Virus record (IMG/VR): IMGVR_UViG_2778261532_000018
Coordinates: 1 to 18,787 of that record
Strand: one strand, 5' to 3'
DNA length: 18,787 nucleotides
Source: a virus
Lineage: Duplodnaviria > Heunggongvirae > Uroviricota > Caudoviricetes
This document shows, one piece after another, positions 3,098-18,787 of the stretch. The notes below the pieces were generated by a model that was not told the DNA's origin, searched no databases, and saw only the letters and a list, made by a program, of their open reading frames with translations. A program made the position numbers and the translations under genes. The first letter of the stretch is position 1. Each line of letters starts with the position of its first letter.

Positions 3098-3099
3098 AA

Positions 3100-4338: not shown

Positions 4339-4937
4339 GCAGCCTCACTTCTGCTGTTTCGCAGTTTTTTAAGTTTCTGTTGATACTCCGCCTTGATGGC
4401 CCTGCACTCTTCGACAGTCCAGCGATGGCGGTTATGGTTTGATTCGATTTCGTCTACTGCTTCCTGCCCGATGCGGTTAATCAGTTCGACGCGATACGGA
4501 ACGAGATTTCCGCTTTTATGTTGGTTGCACACCACGCATTGCTTGTGAATATTGCGTTCATCAAATCGGAGTTGAGGCGCCGCAGCAGTTGTCCGGTAAT
4601 GCCCGGCATCCCACTGAGCAGACGTGAGCGTTCCGCACGAGATACATGGTAAGTCGCGGTCTCTTTCTCTGATGAAGGCGTTTACGGCTTGTTGGGCTTG
4701 TTTAATCCAGTAACTGCGGGGCTTTAAGGCGAGTTTTCGAATCTTAAGTTTATCTTTCTGTCTCTGATCCTCTCGTCGTCGTTTCTTCTCTGCTGCTTTT
4801 TCCGCTTTTTCGCGTTCTTTGCTTCGTCGTTCGAGTGCTATCTTTGTTCCACAAATCTCATTACACCAATATTGATTTTGATATTTTGGTATAAACCATT
4901 CATTGCAACATTTACATTTCCTTCGATAGATTCGCAT
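4335..4937 (-). CDS. ninG: NinG (Rap) recombination protein with recoded N-terminus
   Basis: ATG at 4937 preceded by AGGAG; product [15 protein letters not shown]... becomes lambda-NinG-like from [18 protein letters not shown] onward; the first ~30 codons are AT-rich and divergent. Confidence 0.8.
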
Positions 4938-5478
4938 AAGTGCTCCTTTCGTTGCCGGAAAAATCACCGTAATACTTATCTCGGGCTTCTTCAGCAACTA
5001 GTACCGCTAACTCCAGATCATCAAAGCATCCGAAGTGTTTACTCTTGCCATGGAAACCTAGCCTAACATTCCATTTTTTCTGTCGTTTGTGCCAAGTAAC
5101 TCCTCTGCAACCTGATTTGCTATTCTTTCGGATCCTTATATTTCTTGAATTTTCTATTGGCAGGCATTCTCTTAAATTTTCTGGCCTATTGTCGGTCCTA
5201 ATTCCATTAACGTGGTCAATTTGACCAGCAGGCCAACGATTATGAGTTATGTAAAAAACTAAGACGTGAGTTTTATATCTACGCCCATCAATCATGATCA
5301 TTGAATAACCGTTGGAATCAAAAGTTCCAGCAACACTATTTAATGCTATCCTTCCCTGAGTGGGAACTTTCCATCTAAATACACCGGTAGATTTATCGAA
5401 ACTTAGTAACTCAAATATCCTTTTAACAGTTAAATCTTCTCTTTTACGGTTACATCGTCTTCGCGCTGGTTTAGCCAT
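4912..5478 (-). CDS. HNH homing endonuclease (HNH_3 plus AP2-like DNA-binding domain) fused to the native ninG start
   Basis: 188-aa ORF; first 9 codons MAKPARRRC sit at the normal ninF/ninG junction; then HNH motif ([16 protein letters not shown]) and AP2-like segment ([27 protein letters not shown]); AT-rich. Confidence 0.75.
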
Positions 5479-5647
5479 CGTCTTCTTCCTCGTACATTGA
5501 GCTATTCGGATCGCTCATCAGTTCTGCGCAGCAATCGGAGCACACGTGAACTTCCAGCACATGCAGCTTCTGACCGCAGTTAGCGCACGTTAAAGCTCGC
5601 TCGACGCTTTCTTTCTGGTATTGAAGGGATTGGGATTGGCTAAGCAT
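5471..5647 (-). CDS. ninF: NinF
   Basis: Product from [36 protein letters not shown]... matches lambda NinF as I recall it; start chosen at the internal ATG 5647. Confidence 0.8.
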   Translation of the reverse strand: MLSQSQSLQYQKESVERALTCANCGQKLHVLEVHVCSDCCAELMSDPNSSMYEEEDDG

Positions 5648-6047
5648 GGATTTCACCATTAAAAAGTCGCTTGTAAGCATCAATGTCTCGTTTTGCTTCA
5701 CCGAGCTTTCGTCTTAATTCCATGTTTTCTGATTCAAGCTTTTCCATGTCTTGTTGGTATCGATCGCGGTGTTCTTTCCATGCTTTTTGATACGCCTTCA
5801 TGTATGTCGTATTGGCCTTTCTCTTTGCCTGACGAACCGCATGGTGGTTTTTCACAAACCAGTCAGGGTCGTTAAATGCTGCTCTGGCGCAGGTATACCA
5901 ATAATTTGTTGCCTCCCTGTTTAGCCAATAAATACTGATAAATGGCAACCGGATAGACACCATTTTTCGTTGTGACTCTTTCTCGCCAAACATGTGTCCT
6001 TTTTTGATGCTAAGGCCAAATCCAGGTTGAATTAAAAGCATTGTCAT
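5640..6047 (-). CDS. Hypothetical nin-region protein (slot between ninE and ninF, where P22-like phages carry ninX)
   Basis: 135-aa ORF whose ATG overlaps the ninE stop (ATGA); charged, probably coiled-coil C-terminus; no lambda counterpart recalled. Confidence 0.5.
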
Positions 6048-6220
6048 TTCCTCGCACGTTCTCTAAGCCACCGGATATCCCACAGGTGAGCCGTGTAGTT
6101 GAAGGTTTTTACGTCAGATTCTTTTGGGATTGGCTTGCGTTTATTTCTGGAGCGTTTCGTTGGAAGGTATTTGCAGTTTTCGCAGATGATGTCGGTGATA
6201 CTTCGTCGCTGTCGTCTCAT
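6044..6220 (-). CDS. ninE: NinE
   Basis: Manually translated 58-aa ORF, below the 60-aa cutoff of the ORF track: [58 protein letters not shown]; ATGA overlaps on both sides. Confidence 0.7.
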
Positions 6221-7062
6221 GACGCATCCTCAAAATTAAATCCAAGCTGACATGAAAATGCTTCACATGATTCAGAACACGAACCTGAATCATACTGTCG
6301 CATTGATGTCATTCTTGAGGCTAACTCATCTCTTGATATATCACTAAACAAGGCAATCAGTGATTTAAGTGTATTATTCCCTCGATACATAACCGGTTCC
6401 TTTCCTGTTTTTATTTCTGTATCAAGGATGTTGATAAATGCATCTGCAAGTTCTGGCTCATCCATGGCTGCCAGCGCCACCTTTTGCATACTTTTTTTTA
6501 TGCAGAAAACACAATTACCAAGATGCTCCTGTATGCCAAGATCAAACTTCTGCTCACTCCACCAATCAAGCACATCCTGTTTTTCAAAATCGCTTATATC
6601 AGCCAGGTACCGAAAACCATTAGCCCTTTTAAGCCTGTTTGGTTCATCTGTGCGAATGCCAAGCCATGTGATGTAATTTCCTTTCCCAAACTTTTCCTGA
6701 CAATATTTGGTGAATGGAACAGACTTCATTCTGTCGGTACAGAACGCACCGCCGATATATGGATGTCCGTATTTATTCAACATCCTTTTCCACGGTATAA
6801 GATCTGGACCAATATCATTGACACCTATCTCTTCATAACTACTGGCCTTCCCCATTTCTGGATTAGGTATTACACGAAGGCAATGTAAGTCTATTTTCCA
6901 GTTACTGACGATATTTCGGATGAACTCATATGTTTTAGGGTGCTCTGCCCCTGTATCCATGAAAACGTAATGCACGTCTTCACCTGCCTGTCGCTTTTGC
7001 TCCATTAGCCAGAGCAAATATGCTGACGTCCTGCCACCTGAGAAACTAACGACATTTATCAT
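6217..7062 (-). CDS. ninC: NinC (PAPS-reductase-like protein)
   Basis: Product from [24 protein letters not shown]... matches lambda NinC as I recall it; start at internal ATG 7062 overlapping the methyltransferase stop, not the extended track start 7152. Confidence 0.85.
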
Positions 7063-7586
7063 GCAGCCCTCCTGACACCCTGCCCGATCGCCATCAATGC
7101 CGCTTTGGATACGGTAGTAAACATCCGTCGAGGACTGATGAACGGTCGCCAAATCAGCAGCATGGAGCCTTTGCTGTTTCCCTTCTTCTCCAGCCCCGTC
7201 GATGGTTCGATAAAATTAATCCGTCCATCAGTGATAATACGAACTTCGTCAACACTCTCCAGAGCCTTGCTGAACCATCCGACAGACATATCCTCTGGCA
7301 CAAGCATCACTACCGTCTGTCGTTGTTGTATGCACTGCTCAGCGGCTTTTTCCACCCACGGCCTGATATTGCTGTACGGTGGGTTATTCCAGATTGCACC
7401 GTGGCTTACCCACTCAGAATTGAGCGCGTCGTCGGCCTCAGTTAGCCAGTGAGCACACAGAGCATTTTTGTCGCTCGCTGCCGAATCCAGCCAGAATCCA
7501 AACTCAATATCCAGTGCATCAAAAAGCCAAAGCGGCGTTTGCCAGCAGTCCTTGTCGTGTGCTGGCGTATTTGATTTGATAGTCAT
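7059..7586 (-). CDS. Phage DNA N6-adenine methyltransferase (Dam-like)
   Basis: 176-aa product from MTIKSNTPAHDKDCWQTPLWLFDALD... with NPPY catalytic motif (IWNNPPYSN); ATGA overlaps with ninB stop and ninC start. Confidence 0.7.
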   Translation of the reverse strand: MTIKSNTPAHDKDCWQTPLWLFDALDIEFGFWLDSAASDKNALCAHWLTEADDALNSEWVSHGAIWNNPPYSNIRPWVEKAAEQCIQQRQTVVMLVPEDMSVGWFSKALESVDEVRIITDGRINFIEPSTGLEKKGNSKGSMLLIWRPFISPRRMFTTVSKAALMAIGQGVRRAA

Positions 7587-8023
7587 GCAGCCCGATCTCC
7601 CCATCTCGCTTTCCACTCCAGAGCCAGTCTCGCTTCGTCTGACCACTTAACGCCACGCTCTGTACCGAATGCCTGTATAAGCTCTAATAGCTCCGCAAAT
7701 TCGCCTACACGCATCCTGCTGGTTGACTGGCCTATTACCACAAAGCCATTCCCGGCAAGGTTAGGAACAACATCCTGCTGCTTTAATGCTGCGGTAAACA
7801 CACACTTCCAGCTTTCTGCATCCAGCCAGCGACCATGCCATTCAACCTGACGAGAGACGTCACCAAGGCAAGCCCAAAGCTTTCGGTTTTGGTCTAAGCT
7901 GCGGTTGCGTTCCTGAATGGTTACTACGATTGGTTTGGTTGGGTCTGGAAGAATTTGCTGTACTGCGTGAATAGCGTTTTGCTGATGTGCTGGAGATCGA
8001 ATTTCAAAGGTTAGTTTTTTCAT
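7583..8023 (-). CDS. ninB: NinB recombination protein
   Basis: Product from MKKLTFEIRSPAHQQNAIHAVQQILPDPTKPIVVTIQERNRSLDQNRKLWACLGDVSRQVEWHGRWL... matches lambda NinB as I recall it. Confidence 0.9.
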   Translation of the reverse strand: MKKLTFEIRSPAHQQNAIHAVQQILPDPTKPIVVTIQERNRSLDQNRKLWACLGDVSRQVEWHGRWLDAESWKCVFTAALKQQDVVPNLAGNGFVVIGQSTSRMRVGEFAELLELIQAFGTERGVKWSDEARLALEWKARWGDRAA

Positions 8024-8037
8024 GACTTCCCTCTCCC

Positions 8038-8071
8038 CCAAATAAAAAGGCCTGCGATTACCAGCAGGCCT
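8038..8071 (-). terminator. Intrinsic terminator between ren and ninB (tR2-like position)
   Basis: Minus strand: AGGCCTGC-TGGTAATC-GCAGGCCT followed by TTTTTATTT. Confidence 0.65.
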
Positions 8072-8096
8072 GTTATTAGCTCAGTGATGTAGATGG

Positions 8097-8387
8097 TCAT
8101 CTTTTAACTCCATATACCGCCAATACCCGTTTCATCGCGGCACTCTGGCGACACTCCTTAAAAATCAGGTTCGTGCTCATCTTTCCTTCCCGTTCTTCCC
8201 TGGTAGCAAACCGGTAATACACCGTTCGCCAGACCTTACCTTCGATAACCAGAAGACCTGCCCGTGCCATTTTAGCCGCGGCCTGATTTATGCTGGTTAC
8301 TGTTGCGCCTGTTAGCGCGGCAACGTCCGGCGCACAGAAGCTATTATGCGTCCCCAGGTAATGAATAATTGCCTCTTTGCCCGTCAT
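8097..8387 (-). CDS. ren: Ren
   Basis: 96-aa product MTGKEAIIHYLGTHNSFCAPDVAALTGATVTSINQAAAKMARAG... matches lambda Ren as I recall it. Confidence 0.9.
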   Translation of the reverse strand: MTGKEAIIHYLGTHNSFCAPDVAALTGATVTSINQAAAKMARAGLLVIEGKVWRTVYYRFATREEREGKMSTNLIFKECRQSAAMKRVLAVYGVKR

Positions 8388-9085
8388 ACACTTGCTCCTT
8401 TCAGTCCGAACTTAGCTTTGAGTTCTGCGATCTTCGCCAGAGCCTGTGCACGATTTAGAGGTCTACCGCCCATGACAGGAAGTTGTTTTACTGGTTCAGG
8501 GATCGCCTCACCACGGTTAATTCTCGCAGTCATATGGACAAGCTCATCTGCGGCCTTACGGCGTAATTCCGCATCAGTAAGCGCATTGGCCCGCATGTTC
8601 TGATACAGGTTGGTAACCAGCCAGTAGTGCGCGTTTGATTTCCACGGATAAGACTCCGCATCCGGATACAGGCCTCGCTTCCGGCAATACTCGTAAACCA
8701 TATCAACCAGCTCGCTGACGTTTGGCAGTCCGGCGATAACGGATGCTTCTTCCCGGCACCATGCAACAAACTGCCCGGGTGATGGCAGAAATGGTCGATT
8801 CTGCCGACGGGCTACGCGCATTCCTGCGTTAACCTGTTCCATTGTGGTGATCCCGTTTTCCCGGAAAGCCAGCACCCACTGGCGGCGGATTTCGTTCAGT
8901 TCGTTCTGGTCCCGGTTAGCCAGGCTCGCCGGGAAAGTTGCCAGTAACTGGCTGAACACACCATTGATGATCTGCGCTACCTGTTGTACCTGCGGCTTTT
9001 CGTCGTACTGTTCCGGCATGTTGTTGGCGATCCGACGCATCTGCTCACGGTCAAAGTTAACCATCTGTGCGGCGATGTTTTTCAT
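8384..9085 (-). CDS. P: Replication protein P (DnaB helicase loader)
   Basis: 233-aa product MKNIAAQMVNFDREQMRRIANNMPEQYDEKPQVQQVAQIING... matches lambda P as I recall it. Confidence 0.95.
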   Translation of the reverse strand: MKNIAAQMVNFDREQMRRIANNMPEQYDEKPQVQQVAQIINGVFSQLLATFPASLANRDQNELNEIRRQWVLAFRENGITTMEQVNAGMRVARRQNRPFLPSPGQFVAWCREEASVIAGLPNVSELVDMVYEYCRKRGLYPDAESYPWKSNAHYWLVTNLYQNMRANALTDAELRRKAADELVHMTARINRGEAIPEPVKQLPVMGGRPLNRAQALAKIAELKAKFGLKGASV

Positions 9086-9981
9086 AGATCCACCCCGTAA
9101 ATCCAGTCTGTGTTTGTCAGGTCGAGTTTTGGTTTGCTGGCTATCACGCCTGCCTGTTGCTTGTTACGGTTGATTTCGAGTTGGGTCCACTTATCGCGGA
9201 GTTTGGCCGGGCTCAGCACGTTACCGGACCAGAAGTTGTCCTGGCAGGCCCAGCGGAAAAGCACACACATATCGCGGTGGTTACGTCCGTCACGTTCACG
9301 CATCAGGCGGATATCGTTAGCCCACCCAGCAAAATTCGGTTTTCTGGCTGATGGCGCGATGGTCTTCACCATGTCAAACATCCACTCTGCGGCGGTCAGG
9401 TCTTCTGCTGTTCCCCACTTGCTGCCGCTCTGAATTGCAGCATCCGGTTTAACCACAGAAAGATCGTTTTCTGGCTGGTCAGAGGATTCGCCAGAATTCT
9501 CTGACGAATAATCTTTTCTTTTTTCTTTTGTATTAGTGTCTTTTGTGTTCCCCTGTTTTGAGGGATAGCAATCCCCCAATTTGAGGGATGTTTTATCCCT
9601 CGTTTTAGGGGGTTTTCCCTCGTTTTGAGGGATACACCATTCTGAGATGTTTTTATTTGGTCCAAACATGCCGCCTTGCTGCTTGATAATATTCATTCTG
9701 ACGAGTTCTAACTTGGCTTCATTGCACCGTTTAACAGGTAACTTTGTAATCTCGCTAAGTTGAGAATCGGTGATTCTGTCCATTGGTTTATTCCACCCAT
9801 AGGTTTTACGCAGAATGGCAAGCAGCACTTTAAACTGTCGCTTGGTCAGATCTGCGCCTGAATAAGCCTCAAGCAGCATATTTGATAGTCTGGCGTAACC
9901 ATCATCGAGATCTGCCACATTACGCTCCTGTCCGGCAAAGTTACCTCGGCCGAAGTTGAGTATTTTTGCTGTATTTGTCAT
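9082..9981 (-). CDS. O: Replication initiator O
   Basis: 299-aa product MTNTAKILNFGRGNFAGQERNVADLDDGYARLSNMLLEAYSGADLTKRQFK... matches lambda O; contains the ori iterons. Confidence 0.95.
   Translation of the reverse strand: MTNTAKILNFGRGNFAGQERNVADLDDGYARLSNMLLEAYSGADLTKRQFKVLLAILRKTYGWNKPMDRITDSQLSEITKLPVKRCNEAKLELVRMNIIKQQGGMFGPNKNISEWCIPQNEGKPPKTRDKTSLKLGDCYPSKQGNTKDTNTKEKRKDYSSENSGESSDQPENDLSVVKPDAAIQSGSKWGTAEDLTAAEWMFDMVKTIAPSARKPNFAGWANDIRLMRERDGRNHRDMCVLFRWACQDNFWSGNVLSPAKLRDKWTQLEINRNKQQAGVIASKPKLDLTNTDWIYGVDL
9495..9635. repeat. ori-lambda: four ~18-bp iterons (9550-9634) plus adjacent AT-rich region (about 9495-9545) inside O
   Basis: Four copies of a TCCCTC-N6-GAGGGA type inverted motif at ~22-bp spacing, flanked by an A/T-rich stretch. 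Confidence 0.85.
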
Positions 9982-9984
9982 AAT
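9956..9984 (+). promoter_or_regulatory. pO promoter for OOP RNA
   Basis: -35 TTGAGT (9956-9961), 17-bp spacer, -10 CATAAT (9979-9984). Confidence 0.6.
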
Positions 9985-9991
9985 GACTCCT

Positions 9992-10068
9992 GTTGATAGA
10001 TCCAGTAATGACCTCAGAATTCCATCTGGATTTGTTCAGAACGCTCGGTTGCCGCCGGGCGTTTTTTA
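9992..10068 (+). ncRNA. oop: OOP antisense RNA ending in the lambda t0 terminator
   Basis: Sequence from GTTGATAGATCCAGTAATGACC to GCCGCCGGGCGTTTTTT matches the lambda oop/t0 region as I recall it; overlaps the 3' end of cII on the opposite strand. Confidence 0.8.
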
Positions 10069-10310
10069 TTGGTGAGTCCATCAAGCGCATACTTAAAAGC
10101 CCTGCTAATCGGACTGATGTCTGATGCCATTCCGAAAGCACACAAGACCGAAGCAATAAATCTCCAGTCCGTTCTGCTTATCTTCGATTCATGACAGCCA
10201 ATCATCTTTGCCAAACCGCGCTGTGTAAGCGTTGACAGGTTGATGAGTAAATCTGTTTCTGCGCGATCAACGTCGCGCTGTGATAGTTTGCTGTAACTTG
10301 TTTGTTCCAT
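10014..10310 (-). CDS. cII: CII-type lysogeny activator (P22 c1-like N-terminal part, lambda CII-like C-terminus)
   Basis: 98-aa product; the C-terminal TNKKRPAATERSEQIQMEF matches lambda CII, the N-terminal two thirds does not. Confidence 0.8.
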   Translation of the reverse strand: MEQTSYSKLSQRDVDRAETDLLINLSTLTQRGLAKMIGCHESKISRTDWRFIASVLCAFGMASDISPISRAFKYALDGLTNKKRPAATERSEQIQMEF

Positions 10311-10324
10311 TTCTTACTATTTCC

Positions 10325-10366
10325 ATAGGTAAATAATCACTAATACTCATCTTTCGATGAGTGATT
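10325..10366 (-). terminator. Candidate tR1 hairpin between nutR and cII
   Basis: Minus strand AATCACTCATC-GAAA-GATGAGT...AGTGATT nested hairpin followed by a moderately T-rich tail. Confidence 0.4.
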
Positions 10367-10374
10367 AATTAGTT

Positions 10375-10410
10375 ACCGCGTTGTCGGCGGTGCAGATTGA
10401 TAAAGAGCGG
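10375..10410 (-). promoter_or_regulatory. nutR (boxA plus P22-type boxB)
   Basis: Minus strand boxA CGCTCTTTA (10401-10409), then boxB ACCGCCGACAACGCGGT (10375-10391), directly after the cro stop. Confidence 0.65.
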
Positions 10411-10419
10411 ATCCGCTTA

Positions 10420-10635
10420 TTAAGCGGTTTTGTGTTCCGGTGGGAACACGTCATCAAGACTGACTTTTGCGCCTAACTTGTTTAGGCACGCAACAAGAGC
10501 ACGGCATGTTTTAAGGTCTGGGAAGCGACGACCAGATTCCCAATGTCCGATAGCTCCCTGTGTGCATCCAACCGCCTTAGCAAGTGTTGTTTGAGAGATA
10601 TTCAGTGACTCTCGATATTTTCGTAGGTTGCTCAT
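10420..10635 (-). CDS. cro: Cro-like repressor (HTH), heterologous immunity
   Basis: 71-aa product MSNLRKYRESLNISQTTLAKAVGCTQGAIGHWESGRR... with HTH; ATG at 10635 preceded by GGAGGG; divergent from cI across an operator region. Confidence 0.8.
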   Translation of the reverse strand: MSNLRKYRESLNISQTTLAKAVGCTQGAIGHWESGRRFPDLKTCRALVACLNKLGAKVSLDDVFPPEHKTA

Positions 10636-10752
10636 ATGCCCTCCATAGTAACCATGAAACAATAATACGATATGTACTTTTGGAATGCAAACAAAAAATA
10701 CATCTTGTGCATGGATGGTTTTAGTACAGAGCGTAATAATAAGGATATGAAA
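10636..10752. promoter_or_regulatory. OR region with divergent PR and PRM and operator-like 13-bp motifs
   Basis: PR on minus strand: -35 TTGCAT (10685-10690), 17-bp spacer, -10 TATTAT (10662-10667). Motif copies ATACGATATGTAC (10665-10677) and GTACAGAGCGTAA (10724-10736) overlap the PR -10 and a putative PRM -10 (TAATAA 10734-10739). Confidence 0.6.
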
Positions 10753-11406
10753 ATGAAATGGTATGAACTGGCTAGATCCAGAATGAAAGAACTCGGCATA
10801 ACTCAAGAGAAGTTAGCTGAAGAGCTTGGTATGACGCAGGGTGGAATTGGTCACTGGTTGCGCGGATCTCGTCATCCATCTCTTGACGAGATTGGTATGG
10901 TGTTTAAATACCTTGGTATTGATAACGTCTCGTTCAACCACGACGGTACATTTTCACCTGTTGGCGAATACTCATCTGCCCCCGTTAAAAAACAATATGA
11001 GTACCCTGTTTTTTCTCATGTTCAGGCCGGGATGTTCTCGCCTGAGATTAGAACCTTTACCAAAGGTGATGCGGAGAGATGGGTAAGCACAACCAAAAAA
11101 GCCAGTGATTCTGCATTCTGGCTTGAGGTTGAAGGCAACTCAATGACAGCGCCGGCAGGATTGAAACCAAGTTTTCCTGATGGAATGTTAATCTTGGTTG
11201 ACCCTGAACAACCTGTTGATCCTGGTGATTTCTGTATCGCTAGACTTGGTGGTGATGAATTCACATTCAAAAAACTGATCAAAGATAGTGGGCAAGTGTT
11301 TTTGCAACCACTCAACCCGCAGTTTCCAATCATCCCATGCAATGAGAACTGCAACATTGTAGGCAAGGTTATCGCCAGTCAATGGCCTGAAGAGACGTTT
11401 GGGTGA
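10753..11406 (+). CDS. cI: CI repressor (heterologous HTH N-domain fused to lambda-type S24 autocleavage C-domain)
   Basis: C-terminal ~130 aa from [17 protein letters not shown]... to [12 protein letters not shown] match lambda CI as I recall it; N-terminus is different. Start 10753 preferred for SD spacing (alternative ATG 10747; track ORF starts at 10672). Confidence 0.9.
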
Positions 11407-11472
11407 TATATGTGAAATGCATATATTGATATAAATGCAGCAATATCAAATAGTTAAAAGGTTATATTTTTA

Positions 11473-11853
11473 ATGAATGATCTTGATAAGAAAAAGTACG
11501 ACCAAGTTATTGATTCTGTGAACTTCGCCCTTAGATCGTTGTCAGAGTTATTCGAAGCCCATGGAATGCATGGGATGTATGATCTAACGAATCCAAGCCT
11601 TGATGAGCTAAAATTAGTGTTTACAAGGATGAAAAACGGTGTTGACTCTATTGCTCAAAGCTTTGAGCACATGGTAGAGACAGCAAAGGATATGGATGCC
11701 GCAAGTGCAAGCATAAATGTTATGAACATCAAACAAGGATTGATGTATGCTGAATCACTATTGCTTGCTGTAGAGAAATTAGACTATGATAAATGTGTGG
11801 AAGCAAATACGCAGATAAAAACCCACGATCTTCCACCAACCCAATGGCCTTAA
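11473..11853 (+). CDS. Hypothetical protein in the rexAB slot downstream of cI (unrecognised, AT-rich)
   Basis: 126-aa ORF, no hydrophobic segment, acidic; AAAAGG 11 nt upstream of ATG; codon usage markedly more AT-rich than neighbouring lambda-type genes. Confidence 0.6.
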   Translation: MNDLDKKKYDQVIDSVNFALRSLSELFEAHGMHGMYDLTNPSLDELKLVFTRMKNGVDSIAQSFEHMVETAKDMDAASASINVMNIKQGLMYAESLLLAVEKLDYDKCVEANTQIKTHDLPPTQWP

Positions 11854-11922
11854 TAGTAAATCAAGATTTCATATAGTCTATTTGAACTAGGCTAGTACCA
11901 TAAAATAAACCGAGGAAACGCA

Positions 11923-12024
11923 ATGAAAACCATGTCCACTCTGCACAAAGATGCAATGACCCTGAGATCTCTCATTAACGAGATTCTGGCTCGCTCGTCA
12001 GCACACACCAAAAAAGCCGCATAA
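11923..12024 (+). CDS. Small ORF (33 aa, basic) preceding the immunity-region terminator
   Basis: Manually translated: MKTMSTLHKDAMTLRSLINEILARSSAHTKKAA; GAGGAA SD 6-7 nt upstream; below the ORF-track length cutoff. Confidence 0.3.
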   Translation: MKTMSTLHKDAMTLRSLINEILARSSAHTKKAA

Positions 12025-12035
12025 TGCCTACATAA

Positions 12036-12061
12036 CCCGGCCTCAGCGCCGGGTTTTCTTT
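12036..12061 (+). terminator. Intrinsic terminator at the end of the cI-distal operon (tIMM-like position)
   Basis: CCCGGC-CTCAGC-GCCGGG followed by TTTTCTTT. Confidence 0.7.
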
Positions 12062-12199
12062 GCCTCACGATCCCCACACCTAATAACACCATAACCAATT
12101 GTATTTATTGAAAAATTGACAGATACAACTTGCTAAACAGTGCAATTCTGATCCCTCACCTACCAAACAATGTACCCCTGCAAAAAATAAATCCATAAA

Positions 12200-12273
12200 A
12201 TACAATATGTTATAAAAAACCAACAACATTTAGAACATTTTGTATTGACTAAATAAAGTACACATCGTACTAT
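12200..12273 (+). promoter_or_regulatory. OL/pL region with operator-like motifs
   Basis: -35 TTGACT (12245-12250), 17-bp spacer, -10 TACTAT (12268-12273); motif copies ATACAATATGTTA (12200-12212), a weaker copy on the opposite strand (12235-12246) and GTACACATCGTAC (12258-12270) overlapping the -10. Confidence 0.55.
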
Positions 12274-12316
12274 TTAGCCATCAGCAGGAAGCTGGAAGCC
12301 AAACGGAACAGATTGG

Positions 12317-12353
12317 CGGGCTCTTTAACTTCGATGGGGCGCTGACAAAGCGC
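12317..12353 (+). promoter_or_regulatory. nutL (boxA plus P22-type boxB)
   Basis: boxA-like GGCTCTTTAAC (12319-12329) then boxB hairpin GCGCTGACAAAGCGC (12339-12353). Confidence 0.7.
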
Positions 12354-12472
12354 AAACAGATACCAAACGAGATGGGTTTGGCGGTGATGTGAATTGCAGC
12401 TGCAACGACAGCAACCAGAAGATCAGCATCTGGCGCATCACCACCAAAGCCATTTCACATGAGGAAAACATC

Positions 12473-12781
12473 ATGACGGTAATCGTGTACGGGAAATCAA
12501 CATTCGCAGGAAATGCCAAAACTCGCCGTCATGAGCGGCGCAGAAAGCTGGCCATCGAGCGTGATTCCATCTGCAACATCATCGATTCGATCTTCGGAAC
12601 AGACAGCGAGGAACCTGTTCAGAAAGACACGAGAAAGCGTTTAAGCCTTTCTGAAAAAGCAATATCACTCGGCAACATTCGTAACCAAAATACCGACGAA
12701 TGCAGTGGAAGTATTTGCCTGCCAAACGTAGCCATTTACGCGGCAGGCTACCGGAAATCAAAACAACTGACGGCGAGGTAA
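12473..12781 (+). CDS. N: Antiterminator N (P22 gene 24-like, arginine-rich motif)
   Basis: Product from MTVIVYGKSTFAGNAKTRRHERRRKLAIERD... ; arginine-rich motif matches P22 N as I recall it; GAGGAA SD; start is the internal ATG of the track ORF. Confidence 0.85.
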   Translation: MTVIVYGKSTFAGNAKTRRHERRRKLAIERDSICNIIDSIFGTDSEEPVQKDTRKRLSLSEKAISLGNIRNQNTDECSGSICLPNVAIYAAGYRKSKQLTAR

Positions 12782-12783
12782 TT

Positions 12784-13200
12784 ATGGATTTAAGTAAATT
12801 AGAAAGCTCCTTGGAAGCATCAGTAAAAAATTTTATATCAGTAATTGATGAAAAAACTGAAGATATTAAGAAAGCAACTATTGCAGAACTTATTCAAACA
12901 AGAGCCAGTACATTTGATCATCTTCCTGATGATGTCCGGTCAGCGGCAATTCATTTATATGTTACAGCGCTAAGCAATATTGAACCCCCAATTGATGAAG
13001 AATCAAGAGATATTCAGAAAAAACGGTTTGAGATGTTAGCCAGCAACATTATCGCTGGTTTCACACAACTCTTAACAAAAGAGCCTGCCAGTGAGGCTGT
13101 TCGCCAGCAGGCTCAGGTAATGATTAATCAGGCAGAAACTATTTCACGTGAGCGAAAAGCATTTGATAAATCGGTTTCTGAACTTCCAACACCTCAATAG
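12784..13200 (+). CDS. Hypothetical protein immediately downstream of N (unrecognised, AT-rich)
   Basis: 138-aa product from MDLSKLESSLEASVKNFISVIDEKTEDIKK...; ATG 2 nt after the N stop with GAGGT upstream; no hydrophobic segment. Confidence 0.55.
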   Translation: MDLSKLESSLEASVKNFISVIDEKTEDIKKATIAELIQTRASTFDHLPDDVRSAAIHLYVTALSNIEPPIDEESRDIQKKRFEMLASNIIAGFTQLLTKEPASEAVRQQAQVMINQAETISRERKAFDKSVSELPTPQ

Positions 13201-13393
13201 CAGCCGCTGAACCTTCCTTCTCAACAAACTTAATAACTTCATCAAGATGCTTTTTTGCATGTGATGATTGCTCAGGCGGCATAGCAGAAACTATCGAAAT
13301 GATTGCTTGCTGGAGCGCGAGGTTTTCAGTGCTCAGTTTTGAAACTCTGTCGTTTAAATCCTCAATGACTTTAACAAGAGATACATCTGACAT
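13139..13393 (-). CDS. Hypothetical protein, convergent with and overlapping the 3' end of the 12784-13200 gene
   Basis: 84-aa product from MSDVSLVKVIEDLNDRVSKLSTENLALQQ...; strong AAGGAG SD 5 nt upstream of the ATG at 13393. Confidence 0.45.
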   Translation of the reverse strand: MSDVSLVKVIEDLNDRVSKLSTENLALQQAIISIVSAMPPEQSSHAKKHLDEVIKFVEKEGSAAAIEVLEVQKPIYQMLFAHVK

Positions 13394-13404
13394 GTGAACT
13401 CCTT

Positions 13405-13454
13405 CTTTTGACTGTGGAAACAACAGTCTACCCATTTCCTTTGACTGTGGAAAG
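13405..13454. repeat. Two direct repeats with identical 14-bp core TTTGACTGTGGAAA (13407-13420 and 13440-13453)
   Basis: Read directly; 33-bp period; the proximal copy lies immediately upstream of the SD of the 13139-13393 gene. Confidence 0.8.
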
Positions 13455-13513
13455 TGAAGGAACCACCGAGCCTGATGTGGTTAAAAGACAGGCATACGAA
13501 TAAACACTGCACT

Positions 13514-13541
13514 GTGTATTCATTCCAACGAGTGAATACAC
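13514..13541. repeat. Perfect 9-bp inverted repeat GTGTATTCA / TGAATACAC with 10-nt spacer
   Basis: Read directly from sequence; no flanking T-run. Confidence 0.75.
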
Positions 13542-13603
13542 GGAGCAATGTCGCTCGTAACTAAACAGGAGCCGACTTGTTCTGATTATTGGAAATCTTC
13601 TTT

Positions 13604-13629
13604 GCCCTCCAGTGTGAGGGCTTTTTTAT
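13604..13629 (+). terminator. Intrinsic terminator upstream of cIII (tL-type)
   Basis: GCCCTC-CAGTGT-GAGGGC followed by TTTTTTA. Confidence 0.65.
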
Positions 13630-13690
13630 ATGCATACCAATAACGCTTCACTCGAGGCGTTTTTCGTTATGTATAAATAAGGAGCACACC

Positions 13691-13855
13691 ATGCAATATG
13701 CCATTGCAGGGTGGCCTGTTGCTGGCTGCCCTTCCGAATCTTTACTTGAACGAATCACCCGTAAATTACGTGACGGATGGAAACGCCTTATCGACATACT
13801 TAATCAGCCAGGAGTCCCAAAAAATGGATCAAACACTTATGGCTATCCAGACTAA
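13691..13855 (+). CDS. cIII: CIII (FtsH inhibitor)
   Basis: 54-aa product [54 protein letters not shown] matches lambda CIII; AAGGAG SD. Confidence 0.95.
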   Translation: MQYAIAGWPVAGCPSESLLERITRKLRDGWKRLIDILNQPGVPKNGSNTYGYPD

Positions 13856-13967
13856 ATTCACTATCGCCACTTTTATTGGCGATGAAAAGATGTTTCGTGA
13901 GGCCGTCGACGCTTATAAAAAATGGATATTAATACTGAAACTGAGATCAGGCAAAAGCATTCACTAA
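13824..13967 (+). CDS. kil: Kil (host killing/FtsZ inhibitor)
   Basis: 47-aa product [47 protein letters not shown] as in lambda; overlaps cIII end and gam start. Confidence 0.85.
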
Positions 13968-14338
13968 CCCCCTTTCCTGTTTTCCTAATCAGCCCGGCAT
14001 TTCGCGGGCGATATTTTCACAGCTATTTCAGGAGTTCAGCCATGAACGCTTATTACATTCAGGATCGTCTTGAGGCTCAGAGCTGGGCGCGTCACTACCA
14101 GCAGATCGCCCGTGAAGAGAAAGAGGCAGAACTGGCAGACGACATGGAAAAAGGTCTTCCACAGCACCTGTTTGAATCACTCTGCATCGATCATTTGCAA
14201 CGCTGCGGGGCCAGCAAAAAAGCCATTACCCGTGCGTTTGATGACGATGTTGAGTTTCAGGAGCGCATGGCAGAACACATCCGGTACATGGTTGAAACCA
14301 TTGCTCACCACCAGGTTGATATTGATTCAGAGGTATAA
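13922..14338 (+). CDS. gam: Gam (RecBCD inhibitor)
   Basis: 138-aa product [36 protein letters not shown]... matches lambda Gam. Confidence 0.95.
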
Positions 14339-14343
14339 AACGG

Positions 14344-15129
14344 ATGAGTACAGCACTCGCAACGCTGGCAGGGAAGCTGGCTGAACGTGTCGGCATGGAT
14401 TCTGTCGACCCACAGGAACTGATCACCACTCTTCGCCAGACGGCATTTAAAGGTGATGCCAGCGATGCGCAGTTCATCGCATTGTTGATCGTCGCCAACC
14501 AGTATGGCCTTAATCCGTGGACGAAAGAAATTTACGCCTTCCCTGATAAGCAGAACGGCATCGTTCCGGTGGTGGGCGTTGATGGCTGGTCCCGCATCAT
14601 CAATGAAAACCAGCAGTTTGATGGCATGGACTTTGAGCAGGACAATGAATCCTGCACATGCCGGATTTACCGCAAGGACCGTAATCATCCGATCTGCGTT
14701 ACCGAGTGGATGGATGAATGCCGCCGCGAACCATTCAAAACCCGCGAAGGCAGAGAAATTACGGGGCCGTGGCAGTCGCATCCCAAACGGATGTTACGGC
14801 ATAAAGCCATGATTCAGTGTGCCCGTCTCGCCTTCGGATTTGCGGGTATCTATGACAAGGATGAAGCCGAGCGCATTGTCGAAAATACCGCATACACTGC
14901 AGAACGTCAGCCGGAACGCGACATCACTCCGGTTAACGATGAAACCATGCAGGAGATTAACACTCTGCTGATCGCCCTGGATAAAACATGGGATGACGAC
15001 TTATTGCCGCTCTGTTCCCAGATATTTCGCCGCGACATTCGTGCATCGTCAGAACTGACACAGGACGAAGCAGTGAAAGCTCTTGGATTCCTGAAACAAA
15101 AAGCCACTGAACAGAAGGTGGCAGCATGA
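14344..15129 (+). CDS. bet: Bet (Red-beta single-strand annealing protein)
   Basis: 261-aa product [48 protein letters not shown]... matches lambda Bet. Confidence 0.95.
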
Positions 15130-15806
15130 CACCGGACATTATCCTGCAGCGTACCGGGATCGACGTGAGAGCTATCGAGCAGGGAGATGATGCGTGGCAC
15201 AAATTACGGCTCGGCGTCATCACCGCTTCAGAAGTTCACAACGTGATAGCAAAGCCCCGCTCAGGAAAGAAGTGGCCTGACATGAAAATGTCCTACTTCC
15301 ACACCCTGCTGGCTGAGGTTTGCACCGGTGTGGCTCCGGAAGTTAATGCTAAGGCGCTGGCCTGGGGAAAACAGTACGAGAACGACGCCAGAACTCTGTT
15401 TGAATTCACTTCCGGCGTGAATGTTACTGAATCCCCGATCATCTATCGCGACGAAAGTATGCGCACCGCCTGCTCTCCCGATGGTTTATGCAGTGACGGC
15501 AATGGCCTTGAGCTGAAATGCCCGTTTACCTCCCGGGATTTCATGAAGTTCCGGCTCGGTGGTTTCGAGGCCATAAAGTCGGCTTACATGGCCCAGGTGC
15601 AGTACAGCATGTGGGTGACACGAAAAGATGCCTGGTACTTTGCCAACTATGACCCGCGTATGAAGCGTGAAGGACTGCATTATGTCGTGGTTGAGCGGGA
15701 TGAAAAGTACATGGCGAGTTTTGACGAGATGGTGCCGGAGTTCATCGAAAAAATGGACGAGGCACTGGCTGAAATTGGTTTTGTATTTGGGGAGCAATGG
15801 CGATGA
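15126..15806 (+). CDS. exo: Exo (lambda 5'-3' exonuclease)
   Basis: 226-aa product [50 protein letters not shown]... matches lambda Exo. Confidence 0.95.
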
Positions 15807-15985
15807 CGCATCCTCACGATAATATCCGGGTAGGCGCGATCACTTTCGTCTACTCCGTTACAAAGCGAGGCTGGGTATTTCCCGGCCTTTCTGTTATCAG
15901 AAATCCACTGAAAGCACAGCGGCTGGCTGAGAAGATAAATAATAAACGGGAGGCGGTATGCACAAAGCATCTCCTGTTGAGTTAA
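15797..15985 (+). CDS. Lambda orf60a-like protein
   Basis: 62-aa product containing [48 protein letters not shown]...; matches the lambda orf60a product as I recall it. Confidence 0.75.
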
Positions 15986-16143
15986 GAACGAGTATTGAGA
16001 TGGCACATAGCCTTGCTCAAATTGGAGTCAGGTTTGTGCCAATACCAGTAGAAACAAACGAAGAATTTCATACGTTAGCCACATCCCTTTCACAAAAGCT
16101 GGAAATGATGGTGGCGAAAGCAGAAGCAGATGAGAGAGACTAG
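15958..16143 (+). CDS. Lambda orf63-like protein
   Basis: 61-aa product [61 protein letters not shown]. Confidence 0.75.
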   Translation: MHKASPVELRTSIEMAHSLAQIGVRFVPIPVETNEEFHTLATSLSQKLEMMVAKAEADERD

Positions 16144-16159
16144 GTATGACAACCACTGA

Positions 16160-16441
16160 ATGCATTTTCCTGGCAGCGGGCTTCATATTCTGTGTGCTTA
16201 TGCTTGCCGACATGGGGCTTGTTCAGTGACACCTCAGCAAGAAAACGCCCTTCGCAGCATTGCCCGTCAGGCTAATTCTGAAATCAAAAAAGCCAGACAG
16301 CAGTTTCCGGATAAAAACGTCGATGACATTTGCCGTAGCGTACTGAAGAAGCACCGCGAAACGGTAACGCTGATGGGATTCACACCGACTCATTTAAGCC
16401 TGGCAATCGGCATGTTAAACGGCGTTTTTAAGGAACGGTGA
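16160..16441 (+). CDS. Hypothetical protein at the lambda orf61 position (start uncertain)
   Basis: 93-aa track ORF; a 27-codon hydrophobic ORF (16146-16229, MTTTECIFLAAGFIFCVLMLADMGLVQ) overlaps its 5' part in another frame, so the true start or frame is unresolved. Confidence 0.45.
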   Translation: MHFPGSGLHILCAYACRHGACSVTPQQENALRSIARQANSEIKKARQQFPDKNVDDICRSVLKKHRETVTLMGFTPTHLSLAIGMLNGVFKER

Positions 16442-16539
16442 ACATGAAAAGCAAAATCATCAGGGAGCTACAGGCTCCTTTTTTATTATTCGCATTCACC
16501 CTCAAGCGTATTAACCAACAATTCAGGGATTAATGAAAG

Positions 16540-16761
16540 ATGGCAGACATCATTGATTCAGCATCAGAAATTGAAGAATTACAGCGCAACACAGCAATAA
16601 AAATGCGCCGCCTGAACCACCAGGCTATATCTGCCACTTATTGTTGTGAGTGTGGCGATCCGATAGATGAACGAAGACGCCTGGCCGTTCAGGGTTGTCG
16701 GACTTGTGCAAGTTGCCAGGAAGATCTGGAGCTTATCAGTAAACAGAGAGGTTCGAAGTGA
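16540..16761 (+). CDS. TraR/DksA-family C4 zinc-finger protein
   Basis: 73-aa product with CCECGDPIDERRRLAVQGCRTCASC four-cysteine motif typical of phage TraR-like proteins. Confidence 0.7.
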   Translation: MADIIDSASEIEELQRNTAIKMRRLNHQAISATYCCECGDPIDERRRLAVQGCRTCASCQEDLELISKQRGSK

Positions 16762-17441
16762 GCGAAATTAACTCTCAGGCACTGCGGGCCAAGGCAGAAA
16801 AAGCAACGTGTGGTGAGTGGTCGCTCGAATATGGAGAGAGCCGATTTGATGGTGATGATGCGCTAATTCATCGTGAAGTTGCTGGATATATTCCTATTTG
16901 CAGAATTGAAGGAGCGCATCCAGAAAGCGGTTTCGATGAAGATTTCCAAATGGAACAGCAGGCCAATGCTGAATTCATCGCCGCAGCCAATCCCGCTACC
17001 GTCTTGGCGCTGCTGGATGAGCTGGAAAGAAACCAGCAATACATCAAACGCCGCGACCAGGAGAACGAGGATATTGCGCTTACGGTTGGGAAGCTGAGAG
17101 TTGAGCTTGAGGAGACAAAATCAAAACTCAACGAGCAGCGTGAGTATTACGAAGGCGTTATCTCGGATGGGAGTAAGCGCATTGCTGAACTGGAAAGCAA
17201 CGAAGTCCATGAAGACGGAAATCAGTTTCTTGTTGTTCGCCACCCCGGGAAATCTCCGGTAATCAAGCACTGCACTGGTGACCTGGAAGAGTTTCTGCGG
17301 AAGTTAATCGAACAAGACCCGTTAGTAACTATCGACATCATTACGCATCGCTATTACGGGATTGGCGGTCAATGGGTTCAGGATGCAGTTGAGTATCTGC
17401 ATATGATGTCTGACGCTGGCATTCGCATCAAAGGAGAGTGA
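16758..17441 (+). CDS. Ea22-family protein (lambda Ea22-like, divergent N-terminal region)
   Basis: 227-aa product; MSEINSQALRAKAEKA start and C-terminal ~150 aa (QQYIKRRDQENEDIALTVGKLRVELEE...HMMSDAGIRIKGE) match lambda Ea22 as I recall it. Confidence 0.75.
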   Translation: MSEINSQALRAKAEKATCGEWSLEYGESRFDGDDALIHREVAGYIPICRIEGAHPESGFDEDFQMEQQANAEFIAAANPATVLALLDELERNQQYIKRRDQENEDIALTVGKLRVELEETKSKLNEQREYYEGVISDGSKRIAELESNEVHEDGNQFLVVRHPGKSPVIKHCTGDLEEFLRKLIEQDPLVTIDIITHRYYGIGGQWVQDAVEYLHMMSDAGIRIKGE

Positions 17442-17442
17442 T

Positions 17443-17925
17443 ATGAGCGCTATAACCAAAGAACGTATCGAATTATTCATTAAAAATCCGCTCGATAACG
17501 GACTTACCCGTGGCGAACAAATGGAACTGGCACGAATTGCACTGGCATCGCTGGAAGCAGAGCCGGTGGTGTGGAAGGTAACATTCACGCAAATTGACCG
17601 TGAATATAACACGTTCACTGGTATGTATTCTGACAAAGCAGAAGTCGAACGGTGGCTGCGGCTGCATAAAGCATGTAATTTTCGGGCAGATATAACACCG
17701 CTTTATACCGCCAAGCCAGTGCCGGTAACTCCGGATGGTTGGATAAGCTGTAGTGAGCGAATGCCCGCTCAAGATGATTGGATTTTAATTTATTCAAAGC
17801 ACGGTGAGTATATGGCAGGACAGGTGCAAGGGGAATACGTGGAGTTGAGCGACGGCACTTTATCGTGGTTAGGGAACGCCTTGCTCTGGATGCCGCTACC
17901 AGAAACGCCGCAGGAGGTGAAGTGA
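17443..17925 (+). CDS. DUF551-like prophage protein
   Basis: 160-aa ORF, C-terminal region (WISCSERMPAQDDWILIYSKHGEY...) resembles DUF551 domains common in the early-left regions of lambdoid prophages. Confidence 0.55.
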   Translation: MSAITKERIELFIKNPLDNGLTRGEQMELARIALASLEAEPVVWKVTFTQIDREYNTFTGMYSDKAEVERWLRLHKACNFRADITPLYTAKPVPVTPDGWISCSERMPAQDDWILIYSKHGEYMAGQVQGEYVELSDGTLSWLGNALLWMPLPETPQEVK

Positions 17926-18197
17926 TGGACTCCTTCGCGAAATATACGATTATTGACTGGATAGCATTCCTTCAGGTTTTGCTCATCTGGTTTTATATGG
18001 CTTACAGGAGTGGACAGTGGATTGTCAGTGTAGCCTATAGCAAGGGATGGCGTTGGTGGAACCGAAAGAATAAAAAAACACTGGCCTTGGATTCGTTTTA
18101 CGAAGCATTCAATCTTAACAGTCTTCAGCCTGGTTCTGTCGTTGTAGTCACCACTCAAAGCGTCATGATCATTCAGATTCATAAACCAAAAGAGTAA
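17925..18197 (+). CDS. Small predicted membrane protein (one hydrophobic helix)
   Basis: 90-aa product from MDSFAKYTIIDWIAFLQVLLIWFYMAY...; strong CAGGAGG SD; ATG overlaps the upstream stop (TGATG). Confidence 0.5.
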   Translation: MDSFAKYTIIDWIAFLQVLLIWFYMAYRSGQWIVSVAYSKGWRWWNRKNKKTLALDSFYEAFNLNSLQPGSVVVVTTQSVMIIQIHKPKE

Positions 18198-18199
18198 AA

Positions 18200-18289
18200 A
18201 TGATGTGGCCTATATGTGTTAATTGCGGACGGATGTGCCTATCTGGATGGTGCCGAAAGTGCGACAAATGCACGAAGAAAAGACAATAA
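18200..18289 (+). CDS. Small cysteine-rich peptide (29 aa, 7 Cys)
   Basis: Manually translated MMWPICVNCGRMCLSGWCRKCDKCTKKRQ; starts 3 nt after the upstream stop; weak SD; below ORF-track cutoff. Confidence 0.3.
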   Translation: MMWPICVNCGRMCLSGWCRKCDKCTKKRQ

Positions 18290-18518
18290 CAATCCTCGCA
18301 CTCGCGGGGATTTCTTTTATCTGAACTCACTACGGCGAGTTTTGTTTTATGGAGATGATAAATGCACTTCCGAGTCACAGGTGAATAGAATGGAGAACCA
18401 TTCAACAGAGTTATCGAAGCAGAGAACATCAACGACTGCTATGACCACTGGATGATATGGGTGCAGATAGCACATGCAGACGTAACCAATATTTGTATTG
18501 AAGAACTGAAAGAACACC

Positions 18519-18543
18519 AAGCCGCCTGATGGCGGTTTTTTAT
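18519..18543 (+). terminator. Intrinsic terminator upstream of the excisionase-like gene
   Basis: GCCGCC-TGAT-GGCGG followed by TTTTTTATT. Confidence 0.65.
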
Positions 18544-18586
18544 TACCTGATTTGCAGGTTCGATTCCCTATTCGGAGATAGCACTC

Positions 18587-18787
18587 ATGCAACACGAACT
18601 ACAGCCTGATTCACTGGTTGATTTGAAATTCATCATGGCCGATACTGGCTTCGGTAAAACCTTCATCTATGACCGGATTAAGTCCGGCGACCTGCCAAAA
18701 GCCAAAGTTATCCACGGGCGAGCAAGATGGTTATATCGTGACCATTGTGAATTCAAAAATAAGCTCTTAAGCCGCGCCAATGGGTAA
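18587..18787 (+). CDS. Excisionase-like DNA-binding protein (not lambda Xis), at window edge
   Basis: 66-aa ORF with GGAGA SD at the position where xis precedes int in lambdoid phages; sequence differs from lambda Xis; stop codon is the last three bases of the window. Confidence 0.5.
   Translation: MQHELQPDSLVDLKFIMADTGFGKTFIYDRIKSGDLPKAKVIHGRARWLYRDHCEFKNKLLSRANG

Follow-up and report, generated by a model that had tools for sequence, protein, structure and literature searches.

In lambdoid phages, prophage exclusion has its classic home between the genes cI and N, in a region that is a hotspot of mosaic diversity and holds rexAB and BstA (PMC8585504). Here we analyse what stands in this slot in positions 1 to 18,787 of the IMG/VR virus record IMGVR_UViG_2778261532_000018 (Duplodnaviria; Heunggongvirae; Uroviricota; Caudoviricetes). 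This whole stretch of 18,787 nucleotides (nt), called the window in the following, is a lambdoid Escherichia coli prophage with an immunity region that is 99.9% identical to that of a prophage of strain PEC41. Its cI-N slot is occupied by a mobile two-gene accessory cassette that replaces rexA-rexB and encodes an acidic protein of 126 amino acids (aa), named ORF126 (ORF, open reading frame), and a basic peptide of 33 aa, named ORF33. We regard the cassette as a moron, the name given to accessory genes that form a transcription unit of their own within a phage genome (PMC3594210). That the slot is a hotspot of repressor-linked accessory and defence cargo is already known, and its occupancy as such will not surprise a specialist. 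New are a rare, uncharacterised pair with base-precise junctions, which recurs in this slot across distant phages, and the peptide gene, which is conserved and newly recognised.

With lambda rexA-rexB the cassette shares the slot, the junctions, the terminator t_imm and the expected transcript architecture, and both consist of two genes. However, there is no sequence similarity between them, the lambda genes take up 1397 bp and the cassette 624 bp, PADLOC finds no match for the cassette, and the polytopic membrane protein RexB has no counterpart in the cassette, both products of which lack a hydrophobic segment. BstA of prophage BTP1 (Owen et al. 2021, PMC8585504) likewise lies directly 3' of the repressor gene, is presumed to use the repressor promoter and is expressed in the lysogen, but it consists of one larger protein, accompanied by a DNA-based element for self-immunity (aba), and the cassette proteins are dissimilar to it (no PADLOC or Pfam match). 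Abortive infection by PD-lambda-2, a toxin-antitoxin-like system with three components, has been validated experimentally (Vassallo et al. 2022, PMC9519451), and we found a PD-lambda-2-like system in the cI-N slot of the Shiga toxin (Stx) phage BP-4795 (locus L049, 1151-2492), formed by ORF22, ORF21 and ORF20, which are deposited as hypothetical. Its HigB-like toxin matches PADLOC PD-Lambda-2_A (E = 2.5e-42) and Pfam HigB_toxin (E = 4.5e-30), the second protein contains a helix-turn-helix (HTH) and matches about the first third of PD-Lambda-2_B, of which it may be a shortened variant, and the third is PD-T4-9_C-like. This system has the same slot and the same t_imm-like terminator as the cassette and is also a small multi-gene module in the direction of cI, but ORF126 and ORF33 match neither the HigB/RelE-like toxin nor the Xre-HTH protein nor the third component of PD-lambda-2. 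The slot of PhiR11_1 (locus L050, 1124-2504) holds two other proteins of 283 and 163 aa, one of them in PHROG 23561 (unknown function), for which no Pfam or PADLOC match was obtained.

Further known systems offer partial comparisons. The P22 superinfection exclusion gene sieA is found together with orf59a and mnt on a plasmid that gives strong P22 resistance (PMC10883804), and a copy of the cassette that follows mnt in a Pectobacterium prophage therefore lies in a comparable neighbourhood, namely immediately 3' of mnt in the immI region, the neighbourhood of sieA in P22. SieA, however, sits in the inner membrane and prevents DNA injection, whereas the two cassette products are soluble proteins that have no relationship to SieA. 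In TomB-Hha and YmoB-YmoA, too, the first gene encodes a helical protein (about 124 aa) and the next one a small protein; by sequence, ORF126 and ORF33 are not members of the YbaJ/TomB and Hha families. Type II toxin-antitoxin systems likewise consist of two small, adjacent and co-oriented genes, and our pair is co-inherited in 26 of 26 loci, but ORF33 lacks the DNA-binding domain that most type II antitoxins carry.

Replacement of rexA-rexB by the cassette

The slot was mapped by alignment of the window to lambda (NC_001416), which gave one block of homology on each side of the cassette. The left block (window 10996-11407, lambda 37637-37226, 86.7% identity) covers the C-terminal domain of cI and one base beyond its stop codon, and the right block (window 12032-12200, lambda 35828-35664, 88.8% identity) comprises the stop codon of rexB, t_imm and the spacer that precedes the leftward operator OL. 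Between them, 11408-12031 stand in for rexA-rexB, show no DNA similarity to lambda in this alignment and meet the lambda sequence at both stop codons. A reading of the window made earlier from its letters alone, called the sequence-only reading below, had placed the cassette in the rexAB slot, and this is literally true, the junctions being precise to the base at the stop codon of cI on one side and at that of rexB with t_imm on the other. The strong terminator that it had seen just before OL and the leftward promoter pL is equally real: it is a stem-loop (12034-12055) followed by a T-run with a folding energy of -15.9 kcal/mol (z = -2.6 against shuffles), and all of its 34 nt are identical to the rexB end and t_imm in lambda and in lambda-carrying records. 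Terminators of this t_imm-like type are common to many lambdoid and Stx phages. As a promoter and terminator scan found no plus-strand terminator between cI and ORF33, the cassette is expected on the transcript that starts at the repressor promoters PRM (maintenance) and PRE (establishment) and ends at t_imm, like rexAB. Thus, the architecture suggests that the cassette is co-transcribed with cI in the lysogen.

The GC content of the cassette is 37.6%, compared to 46.2% for the window, largely because of its two non-coding spacers (19.7% and 31.9% GC). ORF126 has a GC content of 39.1% and a GC content at third codon positions (GC3) of 38.6%, which is about 3 points below the GC3 of cI (41-42%, with a GC content of 44-45%), and ORF33 with 46% GC and 53% GC3 is not AT-rich. 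From the claim of the sequence-only reading that the codon usage is far more AT-rich than that of the flanking genes, a modest AT bias in ORF126 is left, while the words 'far more' have to be given up. An imperfect inverted repeat, proposed at about 11415-11445, did not hold up either, as the repeat finder missed it and its fold (z = -0.74) was equalled or surpassed by 43 of 200 shuffled sequences. The proposal that position and composition mark the cassette as an acquired moron stands on a much stronger footing for position and mobility and on a weak one for composition and the inverted repeat. The moron traits seen here are the precise replacement relative to lambda, the presence of other cargo in related phages and the terminator that follows.

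It is possible that the cassette also has a promoter of its own. The spacer between cI and ORF126 contains an extended -10-like sequence TGaTATAAA at 11427-11435, read off the sequence, and a weak promoter-like match TTGATA-17-AATAGT at 11426-11454, which agrees with the consensus at 9 of 12 positions, no more than shuffled sequence yields. Among the aligned cassettes the sequences 5' of ORF126 are not conserved; they are unrelated to each other and AT-rich. In two or three loci where the pair does not lie behind cI we observed a 16-nt element C(C/G)GTTTTTATGGGATA about 50-60 nt 5' of ORF126 (L005 at about 5935-5955, L012 at about 5925-5945 and a variant in L004). It could be a promoter or operator of the cassette; the window does not contain it and, given the read-through from cI, may not need it. 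No LexA box (CTG-N10-CAG) was found within 320 nt upstream of ORF126 at 12 loci, which rules against SOS control of the cassette.

A GC-rich stem-loop is found at the same intercistronic place in six enterobacterial orthologues, each time with unrelated sequence (Table 1), and is followed by a T-run in three of them (L005, L006 and L028); the Aeromonas and Xenorhabdus versions are without it. It may act as an attenuator or as an mRNA-stabilising element that sets the ratio of ORF126 to ORF33. Rfam covariance models gave no match at E <= 1 in 10300-13300.

ORF126, ORF33 and the spread of the pair

The coordinates given for both genes by the sequence-only reading are exact (Table 1), and its description of the larger product as an acidic, soluble protein without recognisable family was borne out. 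ORF126 has an isoelectric point (pI) of 4.8 with 20 D/E and 12 K/R residues, no hydrophobic or membrane segment (maximum 19-residue Kyte-Doolittle value 0.81) and no signal peptide. Searches of both proteins against Pfam, NCBIfam and PADLOC gave nothing significant, the best sub-threshold match being DUF7373_C with E = 0.012, which falls short of the family cut-off. PHROG 16322 ('unknown function') alone was assigned to ORF126, which matches this profile of 126 positions over its full length (residues 1-126, E = 8.2e-89). When all 23 members of the ORF126 family were scanned, sub-threshold noise was all that appeared, and a sequence-profile search of the PDB returned nothing under E = 0.05. 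In RefSeq the protein is WP_021539111, a hypothetical protein of which no mention was found in the literature.

Structure prediction, which had been proposed as a check, resulted in a confident helical bundle. The AlphaFold2 model, based on an alignment of 23 sequences, reached a mean predicted local distance difference test (pLDDT) of 89 and a predicted template modelling score (pTM) of 0.82, and all five models agree on an up-down bundle of three long helices and a short one that shows no catalytic motif. The family shares a G-x-x-G turn that follows helix 1, an N/D-P-S cap, N-[IVL]-K-Q-G-L in helix 3, a nearly invariant Cys108 and P-x-W at the C-terminus. Homologues of 73-75 aa (P0021-P0023) had been considered as decay products, but the short form of P0023, at least, is an artefact of gene calling, the ORF itself being intact.

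The 33-codon ORF downstream, merely suspected before, is a real and conserved gene. Its product is basic as described (pI 10.4), with no hydrophobic segment (maximum 19-residue Kyte-Doolittle value 0.25) and no Pfam domain, leaving 33 residues of predicted helix and tail, and its Shine-Dalgarno sequence (SD) is indeed good (GAGGA at 11912-11916, 6 nt before the ATG, free energy -5.9 kcal/mol). A basic ORF of 32-37 codons occupies the syntenic place 3' of the ORF126 homologue at every locus that we examined, down to 36% ORF126 identity. These loci come from E. coli, Klebsiella, Pectobacterium, Pantoea and two metagenomic enterobacterial contigs and, more distantly, from Aeromonas phages (46-47% ORF126 identity), Xenorhabdus (39%) and Proteus-type prophages (36-37%). 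Between the 33-codon orthologues the proportion of non-synonymous differences (pN) is 0.14-0.40 and that of synonymous differences (pS) 0.57-1.0, the synonymous sites being saturated; ORF33 is under purifying selection, as is ORF126, so that it acts on both genes of the pair. The SD is strong and well spaced in 12 of 12 ORF33 orthologues (mean -7.0 kcal/mol), while that of ORF126 is usually weak or badly spaced (10 of 11, mean -3.4 kcal/mol). RefSeq annotation by the Prokaryotic Genome Annotation Pipeline (PGAP) misses ORF33 in both E. coli genomes inspected (L001 and L002), and only some metagenome gene calls (L008-L010) include the peptide gene, which amounts to a systematic annotation gap for this peptide family.

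Alignment of the orthologous peptides needs no gaps in the part predicted to form an amphipathic helix, with the consensus M-x-x-L-x-x-L-[HY]-...-L-[RKE]-x-[LI]-[IM]-x-[DE]-[IL], which is followed by a basic tail of variable length. When the sequences are right-justified, the last four residues read [K/Q/R]-[K/R]-[A/V]-A in all 12 distinct peptides. As this tetrapeptide is kept despite the indels before it, its position is fixed relative to the free C-terminus, as expected for a degron. Two types of C-terminal ClpX signal are the ssrA-type LAA-COOH and the MuA-type RRKKAI-COOH (Flynn et al. 2003, summarised in PMC7857536; PMC8138137). With two basic residues and A/V-A-COOH the ORF33 family combines traits of both, but KKAA equals neither, having K for L before AA and AA for AI. 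From this resemblance, the C-terminus of ORF33 may be a ClpX signal.

ORF126 and ORF33 are linked in 26 of the 26 loci where the downstream ORF was checked. The ORF126 family is small, with 23 clusters at 90% identity among 5.8 billion proteins and 19 representatives at 50% identity among 1.84 billion, and ranges over Escherichia, Klebsiella, Citrobacter, Cronobacter, Pectobacterium, Pantoea, Proteus, Xenorhabdus and Aeromonas phages. Of 5426 complete E. coli genomes, 32 carry the whole cassette. PLSDB plasmids contain no cassette, the lambda terminator being all that was matched there; the sole homologue in cultured-phage records is that of Aeromonas phage AsXd-1, and a search of representative-genome contigs with a narrower alignment returned three loci only.

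In a DNA alignment of seven cassettes the similarity extends from the ORF126 ATG to the terminator, and a rho-independent terminator lies about 10-60 nt 3' of ORF33 at every locus. Directly behind cI, the pair occurs in E. coli prophages that represent at least two immunity types, in the related enterobacterial phage L028 and in the Proteus-type lambdoids L037, L040 and L046. Elsewhere it is found after mnt in the immI region of the P22-like Pectobacterium prophage, in the nin region before Q (L012), at prophage ends beside tail-fibre genes or the host junction, and after a DinI-like gene in the HK97-like Aeromonas phage AsXd-1. The product of the latter gene is hypothetical in the record; we take it to be DinI-like, and the sequence before its gene to be a LexA box, by eye. 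The Klebsiella copy adjoins a prophage-borne umuDC. The pair thus moves as a unit, together with its terminator, among accessory-gene positions and is placed preferentially behind lysogenic repressor genes.

Two loci deserve separate mention. At L037 the local ORF125/ORF34 pair is separated from cI by a gene for a DUF3024 protein of 113 aa (3357-3698, Pfam E = 2e-28), which means that cargo can be stacked in the slot. The sole decayed copy was observed in Xenorhabdus budapestensis (L047, 4929-5312), where the ORF126 homologue lacks its N-terminal half or more and the gene of a 37-aa peptide ending in KKVA is intact.

Possible functions of the pair

The position of the cassette suggests a function in exclusion, abortive infection or lysogenic conversion. 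Among these we tentatively favour a toxin-antitoxin-like exclusion or abortive-infection module that is expressed in the lysogen, and for such a module we infer complex formation, proteolytic lability of ORF33 and an effect against phages. A transcript with cI, ORF126 and ORF33 would arise in the lysogen when transcription from PRM, or from PRE while lysogeny is being established, reads through, and it would end at t_imm. The acidic ORF126 bundle and the basic amphipathic ORF33 peptide would most likely act as a complex, which we propose because their charges are complementary (pI about 4.8 versus about 10) and the helix is amphipathic. In this complex ORF126 would be the effector or sensor and ORF33 its continuously made, short-lived neutralising partner. 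If the C-terminal signal of ORF33 led to turnover by ClpXP, the peptide would have to be made in excess from its strong SD, and the combination of a strong SD for ORF33 with a weak one for ORF126 would be expected because the small partner must be over-produced. An infecting phage that shuts off host expression or binds one of the partners could then tip the balance and free ORF126.

This reading is supported by the known defence cargo that the slot holds elsewhere (rexAB, BstA and the PD-lambda-2-like system), by the precise swap with rexAB that keeps t_imm and leaves cI and the cassette without a terminator between them, by the pair still being found behind cI in phages whose ORF126 is 36-37% identical (L037, L040 and L046) and behind mnt in the Pectobacterium prophage, by the strict linkage of the two genes, by purifying selection on ORF33 and, as a single case, by the X. 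budapestensis locus, which lost part of ORF126 and kept ORF33. A number of points weigh against it. Neither protein matches a toxin, antitoxin or defence family in Pfam, NCBIfam, PADLOC or the PDB profile search, ORF126 is predicted to be a plain helical bundle without catalytic motif, and ORF33 is without the DNA-binding domain typical of type II antitoxins. The family has few members and a narrow taxonomic range (23 clusters, 19 representatives, 32 of 5426 E. coli genomes), and KKAA resembles the ClpX signals but equals neither. The six intercistronic hairpins, three of them with a T-run, could lower the amount of ORF33 mRNA, which complicates the argument of an excess of peptide, and a labile antitoxin expressed from PRM would be lost on the prophage's own induction. 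Furthermore, the hotspot position is guilt by association, because the hotspot also holds unknown cargo as in PhiR11_1. A more elaborate version, a kind of prophage defence not recognised before, would have a bare four-helix effector checked by a 33-residue antitoxin, which would rank with the smallest protein antitoxins known, with KKAA as a ClpXP-timed fuse, a stop of host expression releasing the effector, and the pair and its terminator spreading through repressor-linked hotspots of lambdoid, P22-like and HK97-like phages in Enterobacterales and Aeromonas; in this full form we regard it as unlikely.

It is also conceivable, though doubtful, that the pair serves lysogenic conversion or host physiology and modulates a host pathway instead of acting in defence. 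The tail of ORF33 could then be a decoy, competitor or adaptor of ClpXP, or ORF126 could sequester a host regulator like helical anti-adaptors or pairs of the TomB/Hha type. RexB protects lambda O and antitoxins from proteolysis by the ClpP family, an effect that the idea of a ClpXP decoy echoes. Such a role would agree with the typical moron behaviour of the pair, including the copies in the nin region and at prophage ends by tail-fibre genes or host junctions, with two proteins that are small, soluble and non-enzymatic in all searches, as fits binders or regulators, and with the resemblance of the ORF33 C-terminus to ClpX signals (PMC7857536). However, no signal peptide, membrane segment or virulence-type domain was found, and in lambdoid phages the pair lies mainly in the slot whose characterised cargo is defence. 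Even less probable is a module that serves the prophage itself and tunes its maintenance, induction or establishment, for example via RecA-stimulated repressor cleavage or ClpXP turnover of O. Closely related cI genes manage with entirely different cargo in the slot, the function of the cassette being therefore dispensable for the switch, copies also occur far from any repressor gene, and no LexA box lies upstream of ORF126 in any of 12 loci. This has to be set against the placement of the pair directly after the maintenance repressors cI and mnt, the Klebsiella copy beside umuDC and the AsXd-1 copy after what we identified by eye as a DinI-like gene preceded by a LexA box; lambda O, moreover, has an N-terminal ClpX signal (PMC8138137, Table 1).

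Strict linkage, complementary charge, a degron-like tail, the strong SD of ORF33 and the decayed copy that kept the small gene are all features that a pure addiction module would show, that is a toxin-antitoxin pair that stabilises the prophage or a genomic island and has no role in defence. We nevertheless consider this improbable, as there is no homology to any toxin-antitoxin family, integrated prophages hardly need post-segregational killing and the cassette is absent from PLSDB plasmids. That ORF33 could be a chance ORF or a small-RNA region, the cassette then consisting of a single gene with a 3' untranslated region, might be argued from the missing RefSeq annotation and from its shortness and location just 5' of a terminator, a typical position of small RNAs. 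This is effectively refuted, since every orthologue, down to 36% ORF126 identity, keeps the frame, a length of 32-37 codons, the start codon, a strong SD and the motif at the C-terminus, the synonymous sites are saturated at non-synonymous differences of 0.14-0.40, and the region has no Rfam match.

The pair is thus a well-founded candidate for a new module by which a prophage would exert defence or modify its host. The cassette of about 0.6 kb is easily cloned, and the conserved 33-residue partner with its degron-like end offers a specific and cheaply testable hypothesis. If the peptide were indeed timed by a protease, this would add a minimal design to toxin-antitoxin-like immunity and provide a handle on the coupling of prophage accessory functions to repressor transcription. 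If no phage phenotype were seen, hotspot occupancy would be insufficient to call a gene a defence system.

Surrounding features of the prophage

Table 1. Features of the cassette and the adjoining immunity region; positions refer to the window unless a locus is named.
Feature	Position	Strand	Remarks
O, cII, cro		-	strand of the window as given
cI, cassette, terminator, OL/pL, N, cIII, kil, gam, bet, exo		+	in that order
cI repressor (LexA/S24 family)	10711 or 10747..11406	+	gene upstream of the cassette in the operon
cI C-terminal domain	from 10996		lambda-like; 86.7% DNA identity to lambda cI over 10996-11407
AT-rich spacer cI-ORF126	11407..11472	+	19.7% GC; without terminator; read-through from PRM/PRE expected
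ORF126	11473..11853	+	126 aa; acidic, soluble, predicted up-down four-helix bundle; PHROG 16322
Intercistronic spacer	11854..11922	+	carries the ORF33 SD; hairpin of the orthologues degenerate here (z = 0.5)
Intercistronic hairpins of orthologues	L004 6408-6428; L005 6399-6421; L006 6408-6428; L009 6409-6431; L012 6407-6422; L028 4413-4431
ORF33	11923..12024	+	33-aa basic peptide; predicted amphipathic helix and basic tail ending in KKAA-COOH; unannotated, conserved
Rho-independent terminator	12032..12065	+	equivalent to lambda t_imm; stem-loop 12034-12055 and T-run; right-hand junction of the swap
Spacer, OL/pL region, N leader	12066..12472	+	88.8% identical to lambda up to 12200; operators beyond differ
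pL-like promoter	12245-12273	+	TTGACT-17-TACTAT
N	12473-12781	+

The repressor gene in front of the cassette is named LexA family protein by RefSeq in the PEC41 prophage, and its product matches the Pfam families HTH_3 and Peptidase_S24. It is a mosaic repressor, since the N-terminal domain resembles the repressor of a Proteus prophage and the C-terminal domain is lambda-like. RefSeq places the start at 10711; the homologue from Proteus terrae (L046, 4035-4730) together with an alignment of the N-terminal domain (MKMKWYELA...) suggests a true start at 10747 or 10753.

Directly beyond N, a 138-aa ORF (12784-13200, plus strand) with a GC3 of 24.5%, which is below that of the cassette, is partly overlapped by a convergent 84-aa ORF (13139-13393, minus strand). 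Both are hypothetical in RefSeq and have no match in PHROG, Pfam, NCBIfam or PADLOC. This region may be a second acquired accessory unit; in PhiR11_1, sieB directly follows N. Finally, two tRNA genes, Thr and Asn according to the PEC41 annotation, lie between Q and the lysis genes (2945-3097, minus strand).

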